From NCBI RefSeq assembly GCF_030028105.1, contig NC_092371.1, positions 167,584,031 to 167,648,030 on the forward strand: a DNA stretch of 64,000 bases, read 5' to 3'. Below the pieces are notes generated by a model. It was not told the DNA's origin, made no database searches, and worked only from the letters and a program-made list of their open reading frames with translations. Positions 3,601 to 61,512 of the stretch are shown here, piece after piece. Each line of letters starts with the position of its first letter. Positions within the stretch are counted from its first letter, which is position 1. The position numbers were made by a program, and so were the translations under genes. Origin of the DNA: Mobula birostris. Its lineage: Eukaryota.

Positions 3601-5200
3601 CGGGTGTCCTCCGCTTTTCGAACGTTCGCTTTACGAAACCTCAGTTACGAAAGACCTACATTAGTTACTTGTTTTCGCTAACAGGTGTTTTCACTGTTAC
3701 GAAAAAAATCGGCGCGCGAAAAAAAGGCAGGACGCGCCCCGAGCAGCCACTCTCCCCCGGATTCAGAACGGCATTCTTGCCGGCATTGCTTAAACTGTGC
3801 CTGTGAGCAGCCGTTAGCAAGATGAGTTCTAAGGTATCGGAAAAGCCTAAAAGAACTCATAAAGGTGTTACACTTAGCGTAAAACTAGACATAATTAAGC
3901 GTTTTGATCGTGGTGAACGAAGTAAGGACAAAGTGAGTTTGGCTTGTGGAAGTTGACGAAGATGATGTTGAAGAGGTTTTGGCATCCCATGACCAAGAAC
4001 TGATAGATGAAGAGCTGATGCAATTGGAAGAGGAAAGGATAACAATCAAAACCGAATGCAGAAGTGAAAGTGAAGTCGTCCAGGAACTGAACGCGAGGCA
4101 ACTACGTGAGATTTTCGCTGCAATGATGAAGTACGACTTTAATTTTGAAAGGGTACGTCGGTTTAGGGCATATTTGCAGGATGGTTTGAGTGCTTACAAA
4201 GAACTGTATGATAGAAAAATGCGCGAGGCTAAGCAGTCAAGCAAGCCTTCCACATCAGCCACAGCAGACGATGAACCACGACCTTTGACATCGAGGCATA
4301 TAGAAGAAGATGACCTGCCTACCCTCATGGAAACAGACGACGAGATGACACCCCAGTGTCCCACCACCCCAAACCCCGGGCCACAGAGATACCAATCCAC
4401 GGAGAATGCAGCGGTAGCCGGGAGGCACCCAGCACATCTTTAAGAAAAAAAGCCGAAATAAACAAGCTAATTAATTAGGTGCCGCCCGGCATGTAAACGT
4501 CGGCCCAGATCAGAGACGATTGCCGATTGCGTCGCCTCTGATCTGAGCCAACATTTACATGCCGGGCGGCACCTAATTAATCAGCTTGTTTATTTCGGCT
4601 TTTTTCTTAAAGATGTGCTGGGTGCATCATGGCCACCATTGTACCATTGCATTCTTGGCAGATCGGTATCGGTCGGCAGTCTGGAGGGTGGGGGCCACTG
4701 CACCAGCCCAACCTGCGACGACTCACCCTAACACACCATCATCAGTGTACTCGGTGCTTTCCCAATTCCGGTAAGTGATACTACACTCTACATACATTAT
4801 TTCTACTTTATATCGGCTGTGTATTTTTACATGTCATTTGGTATGATTTAGCGGCTTCATAGCTTAAAGGTTACTGGAGAGCACTTGCGCCGTGTTTTTG
4901 CCGAGAGTGTTTGCGTGAGATTTTCCCTATGGAGAACAATGCAGGCAATTATTGTGGAAAAGAATTTCTACTTTATATAGGCTGTGTATTCATCATATCA
5001 TTCCTGCTTTTACTATATGTTACTGTTATTTTAGGTTTTATGTGTTATTTGACATGATTTGGTAGGTTATTTTTGGGTCTGCGAACGCTCACAAAATTTT
5101 CCCATATAAATAAATGGTAATTGCTTCTTCGCTTTACGACATTCCGGCTTACGAACCATTTCATAGGAATGCTCTACCTTTGGATGGTAGGGGAAACCTG
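3601..5200 (+). mobile_element. Tigger/pogo-like DNA transposon, internally deleted
   Basis: TA on both sides; TIRs C(G)GGTGTCCTCCG / GGGGAAACCTG; N-terminal HTH remnant KLDIIKRFDRGERSKD joined to the acidic C-terminal tail EVDEDDVEEVLASHDQELIDEELMQLEE (ORF 3946-4443). Confidence 0.85.
4354..4700. mobile_element. hAT-like palindromic MITE nested in the Tigger element
   Basis: Ends CAGTGTCCCACC / GGTGGGGGCCACTG; near-perfect ~200-bp palindrome at 4425-4625; its left arm recurs at ~53248-53420. Confidence 0.65.
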
Positions 5201-38714: not shown

Positions 38715-39505
38715 CTAAAGAAAAGGAACACAGACAAAAAATCCATTTGGAAAAAGAACTGATCGACATCTCCTTTCAGGACAGACTCCCACCACCAGCC
38801 CCAACCCCCACTCCGAGAATGGCAAGCGAGGCAATGCCACTACAGGATTGTCGGTCGCAAGTGACGATATAATTCCCACATTATCTTCGTCTTCTCCTTT
38901 AGACGCGAATGTTACCTTTGCCTGGCACTTATACACAGCAGCGGAAAGAAAAGATGATGAATGGCGGATGGGTTGAAATGCACAGGATCAGGAGGGGTTG
39001 TAATCGTGCGGCTGATGCATTTCAATCCCCCCACCCCCTCCACCACTCTCTAGTTATGTCAATGACGCCATTTCAGCCGGATCCCAAAGTTACACACGGA
39101 CTGCATCAGTGCCAGAGCTCGGGGAAGTGAGACGAGTTAAGAGGGCCGGGAGATGGAGGGTGAGAAGGTGCAAAAGGTCAGGGAAACGAGGAGAGAAAAG
39201 GTAAAGAGGGGGTAGACGCGAGTCTTCACAATCACTGGCCACACGTACACAGAGCGGAGCTGGCACGCCACGATCACCATTTAACAGCGAAGCGCTGCTA
39301 GACATCCCGCAAACCCCTCTCGCCCGAGCTCAATCTCCCAAAGCACCGACAACGACTTGAGAGAGGGCCGGAGTTGCTCACTCGCCAGGACTGCTCTCGA
39401 CCACCCCTCCCTTCCCCAACTAGCGCCTTTGAAGAGGAGGTGGGTTGCGGTGATTGACACGGGGAGTCCTCAGAGCCGCCGCGGCTCCTCATTGTTTAAA
39501 CTTAC

Positions 39506-39860: not shown

Positions 39861-40440
39861 CTCTCAGCAACAAACAACCCTTCCCATTGGCTCACCGTCA
39901 CACGGCAACCACGGCACTAGAGCGCTCATTGGCCTTTCCCCTCCTTCCCCTGGACCGGACAGCCTGCGCCGCATCGGCGCTGCCGGGAGTTGAAGTTCAC
40001 TGTTCCTCCGACACCACTGAAAAGATAAGAAGCAAAACTACATATCCCGTTGTTCATGGCGAACGACGGTGGCTTAAAAATACCGCATGCGCACTAATCA
40101 GCTAGGCGATCCTTAAAAAGGGTTACTGCGCAGGCGCAGTGATATTAGGATGGCGTAGATTTGGATGAGGTAAAGTGGGGGGAAGTTGTCTGGGGTAAAT
40201 GGCGTCGTTGTTGTCCTCGTCCTAGGATCAAGTCGCCATTGCTTTTTTGTCTTATTAGGCCTTGTTTGGGGTCGCTCTGAAATAACTGTGACATGTTTTA
40301 TTTTTCCACGTCAAAAGAAAGAAATAACATTAAGGAGAAAGGGGAGGCGCGAAAGCGGAAGTGGGCAGGCCGTAACCCGGAGGCAGACGGCTCAAGCCGG
40401 TCGATGCACGGCGGGTTTTATTGCTGCGTCACGTTTCAAC
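39860..40440. promoter_or_regulatory. CpG-island bidirectional promoter
   Basis: Two ATTGG (CCAAT) boxes ~39886-39932; ZNF143-type ACTACATATCCC 40037-40048 and an opposite-strand copy 39984-39997; NRF1 CGCATGCGCA 40084 and TGCGCAGGCGCA 40127; YY1 ATGGCG 40147 and 40197; ETS GCGGAAGTG 40355; CRE-like GCGTCACG 40426. Confidence 0.8.
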
Positions 40441-43400: not shown

Positions 43401-44909
43401 GTAATTCAGAAGGTTGCGTTACAATATGACACAAATCTGTGCATGGTAATTCCATTTCTTTCAACTTTAGAAAAGGTACAAAGTTAGTTTCTGGGAGTTT
43501 GGGTCCACTCAAGGAAACTTATTAAAATGAAATTACTTGCAAGTTCTGCTTGCAAATTTTGAATTGTACCTTGTGCCTTCTGCTTGTTCTGACTTTCCAC
43601 CTTTGACAAATGCATGTATTTTGTTCAGGGAGAGAATGTTGCACAAGTGTCTCTAAATGATGCTGTATATAGTATTGTAATGTGATGCCAAAAGATGTTT
43701 TGTCTCCACATTTAATGCAAAGTACTGTTACATGTGACAAGTCACTAGCTTGAACTACAGACTGGGGGTTATATGTCAGTGAGAGTAATTGACTCTTAAT
43801 GAGTCTCTGCTGCAGAGTTGGAGCAGTGAAGGGTTAGGTCTTAAGTTGACTCTTGAGTGAGTGGCATCAACAGTTTGAAATCCAGATTGTCCTGTGCCAA
43901 CTGGATCCTTAGTTTTTTCTGTTGGACTTAGGGCTGAATCTTCCTTCTAAAGTTCTTTCTCATTTCCTCCACCTTTGAAAATATTGTCACTGTGTACATT
44001 GCTACAAATTAAGAATAATTAGAAAATTCTTGCACTTCCTTACTCATTCTGTGTAATCCATATTCCTGTACCTCATGCTTATCTAACTAAAATCAATTTT
44101 GCTCATTTGCCACAACCTTTCCATGTGATTGCATGTAAAATGTTATATATTTTCTAATTTTCCCTAAAATATTGAATTTATCAGTGATCATCTTTTATCT
44201 TGCTCCTCGTCCTTGTGAGTAGATTTGAAGGCCTGTAAATTGGGTGGATTGTTTGTAGCTCAGCCCAGTCCTTCCCTCTCTACTTGAGCACTAAGCAGAA
44301 AACTGACATTCCATATCCATCCTCCTTGGCATTCAATGATGCGAAGCTGACTGCAGTACTCTACCTTTGCCATGGTTATCTTGCATAGTCTAAGCAGCAA
44401 ATCTGCAGCTATTTGAAGCTATATTTAAATTTAGCTGTGCTTGCAGATCATTTTACTTGTGCACGCTCCTTGTCATTGAAAAGTGATATTTTAATTCTTC
44501 CCTGCAACCATGTACTGATCCAACAAAAGAATTGGCTATATTAAGTTTGGCATTATGTAATTCAGACTTAACATTTTTGAAATAATCGTAATAGGTTTTA
44601 ATGTAACATTTGAACTAAAAATATATACTGTGGTCACTTTCGTTAGTGCAAATATCTAATCAGCCAACTATATGGCAGCAACTCAATGCATAAAAGCATG
44701 CAGACATGGTCAGGAGAGTCAGTTGTTCAGAGCAAACTTCAGAATGGGGAAGAAATGTGATTTGTGACTTTGGTTTTAATGACTGTGGCCTGCAGTTATC
44801 AACAGAGTGCCAAACTGGACTGACTCAGCTGTCACTCCTAGGATGTTGTTTGGGACTCTGTTAATTGCTCACTTTTTGCTCTTTGCATGACTTGTGATCC
44901 TGCACGTTG

Positions 44910-45243
44910 TGTTGAGTTGCCTCTACCAGAGAACTTCAGGTTCCGACTGAGGGAATAATGGTCAAACACAACTTACTTAAAAATTTCATACTGTTTATTA
45001 GTAAGCTTGCGTTGCTCAGTTCAACTACAGAGCCCTGCTCGCAGAGCTTGGGAAAGTCTGCAAATCTGTCTGGGGCTGCTGTTATACATCTGTTATCACA
45101 TGCATACTTTGATAAGGGTACACAGCAGCTTTCTCATGCTACAAATACTACTTTGTTTATACATTATTCTCACAGCACGACTTGTCAAGCTGCCAATAAG
45201 TCAGTTAGGTTTCAGCCCTTCTAATTCTGCATGTAATTCCTCA
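44910..45243 (-). repeat. ERV 3' LTR (334 bp), preceded by polypurine tract 45244-45255
   Basis: Minus strand AAAAGGAGAGAA-TGAGGAAT...CTCAACA; TATAA ~45082-45087; AATAAA 44994-44999. Confidence 0.88.
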
Positions 45244-45489
45244 TTCTCTCCTTTTGTCATTCCATGACAACTAGGATTATCAATGTTGGAGTATATCTAA
45301 ATTCTCATATTCGTGTAAGAAGGGTGGATAGTAACCCTCGGGATAGACCAAAGGTCTTTCTTCGTCATTGTAGTCTCCATCCTCATCATTTGCATCTCAG
45401 TCTCTCTGAGGTTGCCTTCCTTCTAGGGGGATTATGTATAAATATCCCTGTAGGTGTAGCGCAAAAGCACCGGCTGACAAAGGGTCAGA

Positions 45490-46661
45490 AACATCAGAAG
45501 AGTGCAATGAGTACTCCTGCGATGATAGCACAATGTAGCAGTATACCGCTCCCTCCTGCGAAGATGTCACTGAAGGGCCACAATCCTCCTTTTGAGCTAA
45601 AGTCATGTAGGTCAGCCCTGATTTTCTGGATTTTATTTACCTCCTTTTGAATATGAATGGAAAGAGGTAATTCATCTGGGATGTAGGGTGTTGGTGCAGC
45701 ACTCGCCCCACAAGAGCACATGCACCTCCTTTTTCAGCCAGAACAAAATTGAGGGCCATTCAGTTCTGTAAAACAGTCTGTCGTAGTGCCATCATTTCAG
45801 CTGTGACGCTGGATGCCATCCATGGCCTCAGCGGTACTACTGGCCATCTCCTCCAAAACTTCAGCCAGGTTGATGATTTCCCTTGAAATGTGGGCCGCCT
45901 CGTAGAAGGGGAAGGTTGACATCCAGAAGCGCTCTGGTTGTGAGGTTTCTCGGTTTTGCCGTAGGAGGGAAGGGTGCTGGTCCAGGGATTTCAGCATTTG
46001 CATGTGGAGTACAAAGTAAGCCAGGAAACAGCATCCTATTCAATTTCTGCGCTCTTGCTGGGTGTCCCATCGGCTAGCTGTCTCTCCTGGGAGCCACATG
46101 TAGGCCCTTTCCCTGCAAACCCATTGAATTCCATTCACAGGGCGCAGTGGTTTGGCCGTTGTAGAAATGGCACAGGTGCTATTACCCAGAAAGTAAGTCC
46201 CTTTATCTTTGAAATTACAGTAGCAGATAGTATTTGCTGGTTGGTCAGATCTGACAGTGATGGAGGGCCATGATGTCTGACCTCCCCATTGGATGGCTTT
46301 TTGTTGGGGTGGGGGTGCAAATGTACCAACCATCGAAGTAATGGCACACACAGTGTCCACTCACATCACTGGTGCAATTTTGGGCCTCACTAGTTTAAGT
46401 GTCTTTAGAAAAAGCCCAGACTGAGCGTTGTTCACTGCTGTTCAGTGGAATGGCTATTAGGGGAACCCCTATCTTCCCATGGGGAGGAGTCACTGCACAC
46501 ACCCAGCAGGCAGATGAGTTAGTTTTCCCAGTATAACTGTAGCAAAGCAACAGGAAGGTGTTTGGCTTGGTTACTATAAGACAAGTGCTTAAGATTACAA
46601 GTATAGACAGTAATAGCTTAGTCGTGAATGCACACATTTGACGTGTCCTAGATATGTCCAT
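45490..46661 (-). pseudogene. env: ERV env (gamma-type), frameshifted
   Basis: Signal-like LLLSILVILSTCLIV; SU CWVC (CXXC); WVC..AYMWLP; RQNR cleavage remnant; heptad EIINLAEVLEEMASST; ISD LQN*MALNFVLAEKGG; CALVGECC; YIPD; TM anchor ILLHCAIIAGVLIALF. Confidence 0.88.
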
Positions 46662-47020
46662 GTAGTTTGACTGCTTTTGGAGTGGTCAGTAACACTGGTA
46701 GGGTCCTTTGCAGCGAGGCTCAAGCTTCTAAGATGGTTCTTTATGAGAACAAAGTCTCCTGGGCATGCTCAATGTTCATTTTCCAGTCCCTCTCCTTCCC
46801 GGTGGGCCTCCTTCACCTGCCAATGCAAGACCTGGAGAGATTTGGTTAGTGCCAGGATATATCCTATAATTTCATTCGACATTTGATTCAGGTCCATCTC
46901 AGGTAATTTTGGGGTCGGCAAGGCAACCTTCCAGGGGGTTCTTAATGGTCTGCCATATACTATTTCAGCCACTGATAGACCATATACTATTTCGGCTGCC
47001 AACAAATCATATTTGGTATG

Positions 47021-47324
47021 ATAGAAACATAGAAAACCTACAGCACAATACAGGCCCTTTGGCCCACAAAGTTGTGCCAAAAATGTCCCTGCCTTAGGAA
47101 TTACTATGCTTACCCATAGCCCTCTATTTTTCTAAGCTCCATGTACGTATCCAGAAGTCTCTTAAAAGACCCTATAGTATCCACTCCCACCACCGTTGCC
47201 AGCAGCCCGTTCCAAGCACTTACCACTCTCTGTGTTTAAAAACAAAAAAAAACTTGCCCCCTGACATCTCCTCTGTACCTGCTCCCCATCATCTTAAAAC
47301 CTGTGTCCTCTTGTGGCAACCATT
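47021..47324 (-). mobile_element. CR1-type 3' fragment inserted in ERV integrase
   Basis: ATAGAAACATAGAAAACCTACAGCACAATACAGGCCCTTT tail plus CR1 3' sequence. Confidence 0.7.
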
Positions 47325-47454
47325 AATAATGAGTTTTCATCTGGAACAAAACTATCGGTAGCACTTAACCAGTTTCTTGTCCTAGTTTAGCCGATTTGTT
47401 TTTCAGCATCCCATTAGCCCTGTCAGTCAGGTCTTTGGGGGCAATGCAATGCCT

Positions 47455-47599
47455 ATTTATTTTTTGTTGAAGTTCATCATCAAACAAATATTTCCATAAG
47501 ATGTATTTCAGATATTGTACACATATATCATATCATATTTGCCACAAATCTCCACATAATATTTATGAGGTATACACCTATAGAAAAGAGAGGAAAGAA
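47455..47599 (-). mobile_element. Short L1/Tx1-like 3' end inserted in ERV integrase
   Basis: 9-bp TSD GCAATGCCT (47446-47454, 47600-47608); A-rich tail on the minus strand. Confidence 0.6.
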
Positions 47600-47736
47600 G
47601 CAATGCCTGTTTAATACATAGAGCCTGGCATTGTTGGGTATTAATCTCACCCACAAAATGAGGGCCGTTGTCAGATACAACTTGCTCTGGTATCCCAAAT
47701 CCGGGAATGATTTCTTTCAACAAAATATGCACGGTA

Positions 47737-48373
47737 CAGTAAGTCCCTGGGTTAAGAACGTCCGACTTATGGACAACTCGTACTTACGAACGGACTGCCA
47801 TAAAGCCTATTAATAAAAATTTGAGTTAAATACAATGGTTCGTAATAACGAACGCACACACTACTTTGTGACACTCAAGAAAACATTGCGTGGCCTCAGC
47901 GGTTCGTCGGCTCAAGGAAGGAATGCCGTCTGCCATTTTTGGGTCGGATCACGTTGCCGTTAACACTGAGTGTGTAACTTTGTACTTGGCTTAAATTTAT
48001 CTCTTATTTACCCTTGTAACCATGCCTCCAGAGCGTAAATCGGATGCAAGTGCTGGTGATGCATCAAAGGAAAGGAAAACGATCACGATTGAAAATAAAG
48101 TGGAAATAATAAGACGATCAGAAAGAGGTGAAACCCCATCAGTCATTAGAAAAGCATTAGGCTACAGTCGGTGAACGATCGGAACAATTTTAAAGGATAA
48201 AGTGAGAATAATGGAGCATGTGAAAGGCCCTGCCCCGATGAAAGCTACAATTATTACTAAGCAATGCAGAGGTTTAATTATAAGAACCGTATGTACCTGT
48301 TCTGACTTACCTACAAATTTGATTTAAAGACAGACTTAGGAACGGATCTCGTTTGTAACCCGGGGACTGCCTG
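47737..48373 (+). mobile_element. Tigger-like non-autonomous element inserted in the ERV integrase core
   Basis: TA TSD; TIRs CAGTAAGTCCCTGGGTTA / GTAACCCGGGGACTGCCTG; RKTITIENKVEIIRRSERGE HTH remnant; integrase reads ..TTDKANT|VHILLKEII across it. Confidence 0.88.
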
Positions 48374-50343
48374 TATTGGCTTTATCTGTGGTAGGATGTA
48401 CTTCAGTCCATCTACTGAAAACATCAAGAATTACAAGATAATACTTGTAACAGTGATGCACGGTAATTTGATTAAAATCAAGTTGTAGTTGGCAGAAAGG
48501 GTATCTTGGCAATGGGTATATCCCTTTGGGCATGGGGTGTCTTTTCCTGGATCACATTCTTGGCATATCAGATGTCGTCTGGGAACATTCTGTGCTACTT
48601 TCTCCAGGTCCGGGCTCCACCATGATTCCAAACATTGCCTTACCATTTCCTCCCTGCCAAGGTGAGTATTGGTATATACAAAATCTACAATAGAGCTCAG
48701 TATAGTTTCAGGTACACAAAGCTGATGGGCGGGAGTAAGCCAGAAGTCCTTGGTCGGTGAGTTAAAAACATGCAGCCGATTCCCAGGTGGCTTTCTCTTT
48801 TTCAGCAGTGTCGAGCTGTAAAACACGCACACCCTCAATTCCAGGCATACCCTCTGATTCGGAAATGGGGGATTCAGTTTTTCCCCAGCGATTCGTCATT
48901 TGGGAAACAGTCAGTGCTCCAGTAAGGGCGGCTTGTTTTGCAGCTGAGTCAGCTCTGTTGTTTCCATGGTCAGCCTCAGTCGTACCGTTAGTGTTGCAGA
49001 GCATTTAATAATGGCCAGTTGTGAAGGAAGACAGATGCTGGATAAAAGGAGGTGATGTCACCCCTTGCTTTCCAAAGTTGCCCGAAATCATGAGCGACTC
49101 CAAAGGCATACCTAAAGTTTGTTTTTAAAAAAAAAATAAATTGGCTGATTTCCCAGTGGCTAGGATGCATGCTGTAGTGAGTGCAAAGAGTTCAGCTTGC
49201 TGCGTCAAGTAAGGAGAAAGAAAGGAAGTGGACTCCACAGTTTCTATGTCAGAATCAACAGCATAGCCTGCACGGTACTGGCCTTGGTTGTCGATAAAGG
49301 AGCTCCTATCTATATAGACTAAATGTGGGTTGGCAAGGGGGACGTCAGTAATGTCAGGTCAGACCTGTCAATTGGTGATTTATTGTTGCACAATCATGGG
49401 TCGGTGAATCTAGACACTTGGGTGCGCATTCTAAAAAGATGGCTGGGTTTACAGTAGAATGGGAAAAAATGGAGAAGGGGTTTCTGTAGTAGAAGGACCT
49501 CATCTAGTGTGGCAGGCATGTGTAAGGCCTTGAGTTTGGTGGATGTTCATCAGAGTGACTACATCATGAGAGGTGAATATGTCCACTGGCTGGTGCAAGG
49601 TAATGTTACTTGCGACCAGAACCATATGGTATACTGCAGGGAGAATTTGAATACAGGGAGGTAAGCAGGAAGTTACCAGATGGAGTTCCTTGGGGATAGG
49701 TTGTTGTCAATCCCCATGGCTCTGGGAAAGGACAGCAGTGGGACACCGGGCCTCGATTGTCACATAGAGTGCAAAGTGGCAATCATAGAGGGGTGCCTTC
49801 TCAGGGCTTGCTTGAGGGAAGCAAAATCCTGTTGGGCCTGCTTTGAGAGTTGAAAGGGAGTCTCGCATTTGGGCAAGGAATAAGGGGTGAGGTATCTGGT
49901 GAGCAGGGCAATGTCGGGAATCCAAGTGCGGCAGAAATTGACAAAGCCCAGGAATTTGTGCATCTGAGTCGATGTGTATTAACAAAGGGGGTTAATTAGC
50001 ACGGGTCAAGGGAATCTGGTACCTTCTGGTCTATTAAGATCTATAGTACATAAAGTGCCACACTTGATAACAAAATCTTTTAAAATCAAATAAATCTTTT
50101 TTCTGACAAATTAACACGATTTTTAAAAATATAATGTGTCCTTATATTTATTCAGAATTGGACAAAATCAAAAATCAACCTTTCCTCAAAGAAAGAAAAC
50201 AAATATTAAAATATAGAACATTGCTCTAGCAACCCACAGTTATGTACTAAAATTTAAATTAACCTTTTCCCTTTAGATGGCCTTTGTGGTTTGCTTTGAA
50301 AGACTGAACAATGACACTACTGTCTGACAAACACAGTTGTCAA

Positions 50344-50647
50344 GAATAATTGTCAAACACAGTTTACTTAAAATTACATACTGTTCATTAGCTAACTTGC
50401 GTTGTTCAGTTGAACTAGAGTCCCGCTCAGAGCTTGGGAAAATCTGCAAATCAAGTGAGCCCCTAAGTGCTGTTTGGGGCTGCTGTTATACATCCGTTAT
50501 CACATACATACTTTGATAAGGGTGCACAGCAGCTTTCTCATGCAATAAATACTACTTTGTTCATACATTATTCTCAAAGCAGGACTTTTCAAGCTGCCAA
50601 TAAATCAGTTAGGTTTTAGCCCTTTTAATTCGGCATATAATTCCTCA
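50344..50647 (-). repeat. ERV 5' LTR (U5 end and PBS missing)
   Basis: Direct repeat of 44953-45243; by hand 14 mismatches over the terminal 173 nt, plus an 18-bp indel further in. Confidence 0.88.
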
Positions 50648-50964
50648 GTTGGGTATCCAGTGTTTTCTTTTAATAAGTTCCTTAGTGTTTTATGGCTGTC
50701 CGCACGATGACAAATCTCAAGGTTCTATATTGTATACATACTTTGACAATAAATGTACTTTGAACCTTTGATTGTTGGTGCCAGGTGGAGTGGTTTGAGT
50801 ATATTAGAAACTGCTGATCTGGGATTTTCACACACTTACAGAGAAAAGTATGAAAAACAAAAATCATCCAGTGAGTAGCAGTTCTGTGGGCGAAAATGCC
50901 TTGTATACGAGGGGTCTGAGGAGAATGGCCATACTGGTTCCAGCTGACAGGAAGGCAACACTAA

Positions 50965-60155: not shown

Positions 60156-61512
60156 CTGATGACTTGTCGTCATCCCATCCTGATGACTTGTCGTCATCCC
60201 ATCCTGATGACTTGTCGTCATCCCATCCTGATGACTTGTCGTCATCCCATCCTGATGACTTGTCGTCATCCCATCCTGATGACTTGTCGTCATCCCATCC
60301 TGATGACTTGTCGTCATCCCATCCTGATGACTTGTCGTCATCCCATCCTGATGACTTGTCGTCATCCCATCCTGATGACTTGTCGTCATCCCATCCTGAT
60401 GACTTGTCGCCATCCCATCCTGATGACTTGTCGCCATCCCATCCTGATGACTTGTCGCCATCCCATCCTGATGACTTGTCGCCATCCCATCCTGATGACT
60501 TGTCGCCATCCCATCCTGATGTCTTGTCGCCATCCCATCCTGATGTCTTGTCGCCATCCCATCCTGATGTCTTGTCGCCATCCCATCCTGATGACTTGTC
60601 GCCATCCCATCCTGATGACTTGTCGCCATCCCATCCTGATGACTTGTCGCCATCCCATCCTGATGACTTGTCGCCATCCCATCCTGATGACTTGTCGCCA
60701 TCCCATCCTGATGACTTGTCGCCATCCCATCCTGATGACTTGTCGCCATCCCATCCTGATGACTTGTCGCCATCCCATCCTGATGACTTGTCGCCATCCC
60801 ATCCTGATGACTTGTCGCCATCCCATCCTGATGACTTGTCGCCATCCCATCCTGATGACTTGTCGCCATCCCATCCTGATGACTTGTCGCCATCCCATCC
60901 TGATGACTTGTCGCCATCCCATCCTGATGACTTGTCGCCATCCCATCCTGATGACTTGTCGCCATCCCATCCTGATGACTTGTCGCCATCCCATCCTGAT
61001 GACTTGTCGCCATCCCATCCTGATGACTTGTCGCCATCCCATCCTGATGACTTGTCGCCATCCCATCCTGATGACTTGTCGCCATCCCATCCTGATGACT
61101 TGTCGCCATCCCATCCTGATGACTTGTCGCCATCCCATCCTGATGACTTGTCGCCATCCCATCCTGATGACTTGTCGCCATCCCATCCTGATGACTTGTC
61201 GCCATCCCATCCTGATGACTTGTCGCCATCCCATCCTGATGACTTGTCGCCATCCCATCCTGATGACTTGTCGCCATCCCATCCTGATGACTTGTCGCCA
61301 TCCCATCCTGATGACTTGTCGCCATCCCATCCTGATGACTTGTCGCCATCCCATCCTGATGACTTGTCGCCATCCCATCCTGATGACTTGTCGCCATCCC
61401 ATCCTGATGACTTGTCGCCATCCCATCCTGATGACTTGTCGCCATCCCATCCTGATGACTTGTCGCCATCCCATCCTGATGACTTGTCGCCATCCCATCC
61501 TGATGACTTGTC
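60156..61512. repeat. 24-bp minisatellite (CTGATGACTTGTCGCCATCCCATC), ~56.5 copies
   Basis: Direct inspection; 8-residue periodic ORFs in 5 frames. Confidence 0.97.

Follow-up and report, generated by a model that had tools for sequence, protein, structure and literature searches.

A reverse transcriptase-less endogenous retrovirus near ARID4B in Mobula birostris carries a host sequence probably captured from a PAK 3' untranslated region

We analyzed a 64,000-nt stretch of Mobula birostris DNA (NCBI RefSeq assembly GCF_030028105.1, contig NC_092371.1, positions 167,584,031 to 167,648,030 of the forward strand; hereafter the window) and a minus-strand endogenous retrovirus (ERV) that runs in it from 50647 to 44910. 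The element is a genuine, long-dead provirus, and its more interesting aspect is its membership in a sub-lineage that lacks reverse transcriptase (RT) and carries host sequence. We consider it very probable that this sub-lineage stems from a class I, fish-type virus in which a block of ~1.9 kb was replaced by a piece of a host PAK gene, captured from the 3' untranslated region (UTR) by template switching, and that it was spread by helper viruses. One genome would then have preserved, with base-exact joins, the donor locus, proviruses of the helper type, the recombinant itself and a second-generation deletion, and so document from start to finish how a retrovirus of an early-branching jawed vertebrate captured host RNA.

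We searched the species' own 4.0-Gb genome for relatives of the provirus (copies are labelled by L numbers and chromosomes by C numbers). A search with the long terminal repeat (LTR) gave 207 candidates, the best 40 of which were scored and were 77-83% identical, and a search with a stretch of pol gave 86. The fetched loci were of two types, RT-bearing and RT-less. RT-bearing copies occupied nine loci (11 family-level matches; 22 of 22 candidates scored) and had nucleocapsid (NC), protease, an extra domain and the RT core; the YVDD motif was kept in L044, L049 and L111, and every copy that we translated was broken. All 30 junction loci that we mapped were without the block between position 2972 of copy L046 (the end of capsid) and ~4854-4900 (the RT thumb), that is, ~1.9 kb comprising NC, protease, a 2H-like domain and the RT core. 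A deletion of RT private to the window copy was rejected, as the joins were common to other loci. RT-less copies exceeded RT-bearing ones by ~4:1, and ERV surveys based on RT would miss about four fifths of the family. A second deletion of ~445 nt, with ~10 nt of microhomology, was joined identically at 15 of 31 loci (a script called 11 and the other four were seen by eye); it removed neighbouring pol and left the host piece whole. The shared join of this deletion indicates that the RT-less genome was copied in more than one round.

The gap in the RT-less copies was filled by a 460-nt stretch of 33% GC that aligned across 15 copies. We rejected a degraded protease/RT remnant as its source, since it gave no alignment to four RT-bearing copies. 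The full segment measures 473 nt, of which the window copy keeps 337 nt. At one locus (L105, on C12 at ~120.56 Mb) the segment was matched without any viral part within 10 kb. A 1-kb query from this locus matched elsewhere only over its nt 281-753, with 41 matches at no fewer than 38 distinct loci, a lower bound as the best 40 of 48 candidates were scored. Viral flanks were seen at 37 of these 38 loci, and the remaining one had a pol match 2 kb away. The piece thus has identical ends at at least 38 proviral loci, ~32 of them independent once the duplicates on C24 (n=7) were collapsed. Upstream of the piece at L105, and on the same strand, we found six exons of a kinase gene, the last of which closes with a stop codon at ~L105:7716. 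Two of the exons matched PAK1/2/3 in PDB at E values of 7e-41 and 1e-9, well above PAK4-6, and on these matches the gene is assigned to the group I PAKs. The piece lies 2.6-3.1 kb past the PAK stop codon on the same strand and is likely part of the PAK 3' UTR. A search of sequencing runs for the host locus listed no RNA data set, a result that does not bear on expression. A captured coding exon was rejected: gag read on for only ~50 codons inside the piece, this frame was also open at the host locus, and stops occurred in the others. In six of 12 copies the gag frame ran 49-51 codons into the piece and then stopped, and in the rest it was shorter or longer by later mutations. Since gag stops inside the piece, Pol would not be translatable from RT-less copies; NC is also gone. 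Past the PAK gene, at a distance of 15-20 kb downstream, is an element (L128:6376-9998) whose motifs class it as Gypsy-like and whose frames for gag, protease, RT and integrase are long.

We examined the joins between viral and host sequence. At the 5' join, the host piece and viral gag shared 10-12 nt in all six RT-bearing copies (12 in one, 11 in four and 10 in one), and seven of seven RT-less copies switched at this microhomology. A plausible course of events is that PAK mRNA was co-packaged with the viral genome and that reverse transcriptase jumped from gag to the PAK RNA at 11-12 nt of identity and then back into pol. The recombinant would have kept the LTRs, the tRNA-Ser primer site, the leader and the polypurine tract (PPT), and with these kept, helpers would be able to package, copy and integrate the RT-less genome. 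The enzymes of complete siblings probably then spread it until the ~4:1 excess was reached, while the further ~445-nt deletion would have arisen and been amplified in turn. Once integrated, the window copy would have been stripped of the end of U5, the primer-binding site (PBS) and gag, and the insertion of nested repeats and neutral decay would have followed.

The spread of the family was assessed from its integration sites. Among 12 RT-less copies with both ends, target-site duplications (TSDs) were exact in five, agreed at 3 of 4 nt in five and were absent in two. When 19 outer flanks were compared, only the pair from C24 matched each other. Of 25 siblings, drawn from both types, 15 had a tRNA-Ser primer site after the 5' LTR, with 1-4 mismatches; the tRNA-Ser identity came from ARAGORN, with 4 of 21 fetched pattern matches. 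Kimura two-parameter (K2P) distances between paired LTRs were 0.051-0.143 with a median of 0.09 in RT-less copies (n=12) and 0.068-0.135 in RT-bearing copies (n=3), so that the ranges overlapped. The dispersed RT-less copies are therefore independent integrations that coexisted with the helper type. The cluster on C24 is a recent segmental amplification: seven near-identical RT-less copies (L039-L042 and L097-L099; 54.7-66.2 Mb) lie there in both orientations with shared flanks and differ by 0-2.3%. Inside their pol is a tandem expansion of 59 nt that varies in length, and their divergence from the host piece (15%) is roughly double that of the dispersed copies. L050 and L052 have additional pieces of LTR and env beside the 5' LTR, which hints at proviruses in tandem or nested in each other. 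The genome also gave eleven short, weak matches to RT (L064-L074; 54-335 nt at 64-87%), an indication that it holds more distantly related retroelement families as well.

Several observations weigh against helper-driven spread of a captured 3' UTR piece. Several AATAAA/ATTAAA signals lie between the PAK stop codon and the piece, so that a shorter UTR is possible, and the 3' join shares only ~1 nt. Both features would suit a genuine capture that did not involve a mature 3' UTR: the virus would have taken up nuclear or read-through RNA extending beyond the poly(A) site, or one master provirus would have acquired the piece by DNA-level repair. We regard this as unlikely, as the piece lies on PAK's own strand, no transposon-like reading frame was seen from the stop codon through the piece at the PAK locus, and capture of 3' UTRs has a precedent (PMC11905727). 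The transfer could also have run the other way, or from a third source: the piece would have entered the virus from some other RNA and a fragment of an RT-less provirus would later have been pasted behind PAK. The 11-12 nt that the host locus shares with viral gag at the 5' end would fit such an order. Against it, the host match ends exactly at both viral joins, with no LTR, gag or pol around it, and the host piece has accumulated roughly half the change seen in the proviral copies: its mean p to 23 dispersed copies was 0.088 (range 0.067-0.108), compared with 0.110 among the copies (253 pairs), and its branch was 0.028 relative to a median of 0.055 for the copies. This low divergence fits a constrained host source and not an insert of the same age; transfer from host to virus is thus the probable direction, and the reverse is very improbable.

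The copy trees add further difficulties. An RNase H-integrase DNA tree of 35 copies was star-like; RT-less copies did not form one clade, at least two label changes were forced, and one starred pair joined an RT-less with an RT-bearing copy. Such mixing requires recombination or poor resolution. Nor was the second-deletion group a clade on the captured piece. Star-like trees of this kind are unable to order events. There was also no third-codon-position excess in gag, pol or env in any group (p3/p12 0.84-1.09), and selection therefore gives no support for infectious spread. The mixed pol tree, together with the closely similar C24 copies and their common flanks, could be read as spread by segmental duplication or gene conversion in place of helper-driven integration; this holds for C24, but it is refuted for the dispersed copies by their unrelated flanks and own TSDs, and conversion would implausibly have had to swap 1.9 kb for 0.47 kb at ~30 loci spread over some 15 chromosomes, which makes it extremely improbable for the family. 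Returning to helper-driven spread, we offer as a speculative and rather doubtful addition that the PAK piece acted as a cis-acting RNA signal (for stability, export or oocyte localisation) favouring access to the germ line. If true, this would explain the ~4:1 excess over the helper and the retention of the whole piece at the second deletion, and the element would be a defective-interfering retrovirus fossilised with its helper and its host donor.

We delimited the provirus in the window (Table 1). It has TG at 44910, CA at 50647 and GTTG on both sides, and the PPT, AAAAGGAGAG-AA, stands directly before the 3' LTR. Residues 535-1219 of a skate Pol mapped to 49963-46865 in five broken pieces (tblastn, best E 2e-53); residue 535, where pol starts in the window copy, is past the RT palm. 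Pfam matches on the window's own fragments were weak, and there was no Pfam match for env. The transmembrane (TM) CX6CC motif is frameshifted in the window copy and was exact in 4 of 23 loci scanned. The LTR pair had 92% identity over 178 nt, with 25 mismatches in 285 aligned columns (8.8%; K2P 0.094). These results confirmed in part an initial annotation made from the letters of the window, which had described TG..CA ends, a GTTG 4-bp TSD, a PPT, remnants of RT thumb, RNase H, integrase and env in proviral order, a CXXC/ISD env (CWVC in the surface unit and the immunosuppressive domain were both found) and an LTR mismatch of ~8% implying an old insertion. Its two LTRs turned out to be one whole 3' LTR and a 5' LTR without its last ~43 nt, and the double deletion and the RT-less, host-sequence-carrying sub-lineage had been overlooked.

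Table 1. Features of the provirus and its nested insertions, in window coordinates.
Feature	Position	Strand	Remark
Left TSD	44906..44909		GTTG
3' LTR	44910..45243	-	whole, 334 nt, TG..CA; AATAAA at LTR position 245
PPT	45246..45255	-	2 nt from LTR
env remnant (approximate ends)	45290..46685	-	stops and frameshifts; signal-peptide-like start, CWVC in surface unit, immunosuppressive domain, TM
Integrase C-terminal remnant	46690..46985	-	MLVIN_C match, E 5e-17, in sibling L043
Nested repeat	47021..47324		31 matches among fetched loci
Integrase core remnant	47326..47732	-	interrupted by 142-nt stretch (47460-47601)
Nested Tigger/pogo-like DNA transposon remnant	47737..48373	+	terminal inverted repeats, TA on both sides, CENP-B_N helix-turn-helix (E 0.001)
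Integrase zinc finger and start of core	48374..48900	-	broken
RNase H remnant (approximate ends)	48930..49355	-	RYAFGVAHDFG
RT thumb and connection remnant	49356..49993	-	without fingers and palm (YxDD)
Putative host-derived piece	49994..50330	-	last ~337 nt of 473-nt segment; 82% gapped identity, p 0.099 ungapped; match downstream of group I PAK gene
Junction of the window copy's own deletion	50331..50343	-	short TTGACAA-like repeat
5' LTR	50344..50647	-	without last ~43 nt of U5
Right TSD	50648..50651		GTTG

Besides NC, protease, the 2H-like domain and the RT catalytic core, which nine sibling loci keep, the window copy is without PBS, leader and gag. Its private deletion of ~1.7-1.9 kb took the end of U5, the PBS, the leader, gag and the first part of the host piece. 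Reverse transcription requires a PBS and restores both LTRs, and the U5 end, PBS and gag must therefore have been lost after integration. Three inserts broke the integrase region: the common repeat at 47021-47324, which is likely the 3' end of a long interspersed element, the AT-rich 142-nt stretch, for which there was no match in the window or the fetched loci, and the Tigger-like remnant. With 2.2e-10 changes per site per year, as PMC4422223 assumes, the K2P of 0.094 corresponds to 214 million years (My), with 1e-9 to 47 My and with 2.2e-9 to 21 My; a shark pedigree gave 7e-10 per generation (PMC10587355). CpG decay inflates the LTR distance. By these estimates the insertion is old, with a date that is loose within an order of magnitude.

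To classify the provirus we relied in part on its siblings, as the window copy has no RT core. The RT of L111 matched the MLV (murine leukaemia virus) type at an E value of 4e-35, foamy virus at 3e-18 and Ty3 at 1e-7; a Gypsy origin was rejected, this RT being nearer retroviral than Ty3. A 4-bp TSD is a class I trait. A natural 340-aa open reading frame (ORF) had its closest relatives among skate and shark ERV Pols (41-45% identity). In a 49-row tree, from which two short rows had been dropped, the query was sister to five skate/shark rows with an SH-like approximate likelihood ratio (SH-aLRT) support of 99, and mammalian gamma rows formed their own starred clade (99) with the query outside. 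Membership in the gammaretroviruses (clade Jin) was accordingly rejected, as the query grouped with skates and sharks. The same tree, which is unrooted, has weak deep branches and holds no row for walleye dermal sarcoma virus (WDSV), placed the query among fish, turtle and amphibian ERVs. The initial annotation had proposed a class I, epsilon/gamma-like ERV, not a Gypsy element, in a probable elasmobranch. The L111 E values, the MLVIN_C match, the TSDs and env agreed with class I, the nearest Pols with an elasmobranch, and the tree, unrooted and without WDSV, favoured epsilon-like over gamma. Taken together, these sequence comparisons place the window provirus among class I, fish-type ERVs.

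Assignment to the genus Epsilonretrovirus proper was also rejected. WDSV and other epsilonretroviruses use tRNA-His as primer and this family uses tRNA-Ser; env reaches the PPT and leaves no room for 3' ORFs, while the leader was not searched for ORFs. Accessory ORFs such as the retroviral cyclin mark epsilonretroviruses (PMC4299795). The distance from protease to YxDD was 423-500 aa in the skate and ~20 other Pols, many of them teleost and many with HxT/S, compared with ~300-320 aa in gamma and most others. RT-bearing siblings and the skate Pol have two HxT motifs ~60 aa apart between protease and RT, and a sibling's domain aligned to that of the skate (34%, E 3e-16). We found no Pfam or PDB match for this domain, and a region search found only skate copies; an atlas lead to tRNA_lig_CPD scored 0.78, below the 0.9 mark, and a single-sequence model had a pLDDT (predicted local distance difference test) of 36. 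WDSV and ERVs of fish are reported to have 2H domains (PMC9503650, PMC4977317).

The surroundings of the provirus agreed with the initial annotation, which had placed it next to ARID4B. An exon at 15317-15210 on the minus strand had ARID4B as its best PDB match (E 4e-19; ARID4A 2e-16), the RBB1NT exon of ARID4B lies 41 kb left of the window, and a CpG island spans ~38.0-40.5 kb of the window. A polyprenyl-synthase exon was found on the plus strand 62 kb past the right end. In the island, a site resembling a splice donor lies on the minus strand near 39500, and a plus-strand donor lies together with GCGC/ATGGC motifs near 40150-40200. It looks like a bidirectional ARID4B/GGPS1-like promoter; in human, ARID4B and GGPS1 are arranged head to head. 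From the positions of the exon, the island and the polyprenyl synthase, the provirus lies ~5 kb upstream of ARID4B (its CpG island), likely in an early intron of the divergent gene. Further along the window, at 60156-61512, a tandem array of 56.5 copies of a 24-nt unit, 99% identical and open in several frames, is likely a young minisatellite.

We compared the family with known systems. Its nearest relatives are skate and shark Pols (Leucoraja XP_055501356.1, Amblyraja, Scyliorhinus, Heterodontus and Pristiophorus; 42-47% identity), and the skate Pol shares its protease-[HxT..HxT]-RT layout with the RT-bearing siblings. The family is a distinct lineage with a long branch (0.7), and the skate frames are open whereas all copies examined here are broken. 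Leucoraja and Amblyraja have several near-identical ERV Pols with open frames, annotated in NCBI as uncharacterised proteins. The initial annotation had suggested that the lineage may be uncatalogued; Pols of skates and sharks related to it thus already have NCBI entries, though without a characterised name. As in teleost epsilon-like ERVs (WDSV and others), an HxT/S domain, which gamma Pols lack, stands between protease and RT in the RT-bearing siblings; unlike in those viruses, the primer is tRNA-Ser, and the domain is deleted in the window copy. The recombinant koala retrovirus recKoRV took up another retroelement and acutely transforming retroviruses took up coding oncogenes, while the piece captured here would be a non-coding tail. 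As proposed here, foreign sequence took the place of internal viral genes and spread depended on helpers in recKoRV (PMC11905727) and in acutely transforming retroviruses. Epsilon-like ERVs have been described in the elephant shark (CmiERV lineages II/III; PMC4422223, Han 2015) and in other cartilaginous fish (clade Mu; PMC6001957 and bioRxiv 2021.11.23.469661). The present family resembles them, by description and not by sequence, in being probably epsilon-like, in cartilaginous fish and tens of My old or more; the available text of PMC4422223 and PMC6001957 mentions no host capture.

Ancient crocodilian ERVs, CrocERV29 (KIT ligand) and CrocERV31 (nectin3), were amplified after capture of host mRNA (PMC4299795, Chong et al. 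2014). Their captured sequences are coding ORFs under purifying selection that either sit between pol and env or take the place of env, and these ERVs keep RT, whereas here the piece is non-coding and RT was lost. A literature search found no chondrichthyan ERV with captured host sequence; supplementary data or Dfam/Repbase could hold the family. The closest parallel is primate ERV-Hako and HakoP, defective ERVs with parts of the SUSD6 or SPHKAP 3' UTR at several loci, for which helper dependence has been discussed (PMC11905727, Frith 2025). Like ERV-Hako, the RT-less form is a defective ERV that carries part of a host 3' UTR (here likely) and was copied to many loci. ERV-Hako is a class II element of primates with tRNA-Trp and a 5-6 bp TSD, and the present family is a class I element of cartilaginous fish with tRNA-Ser and a 4-bp TSD; moreover, unlike in ERV-Hako, the capture replaces the NC-protease-RT core, and the source locus and helper-type copies survive together. 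The kind, a helper-dependent ERV with a likely host 3' UTR, is thus already known, and a chondrichthyan class I case is new to the literature that we searched; it would extend 3' UTR capture from the class II ERVs of primates to the class I ERVs of cartilaginous fish.

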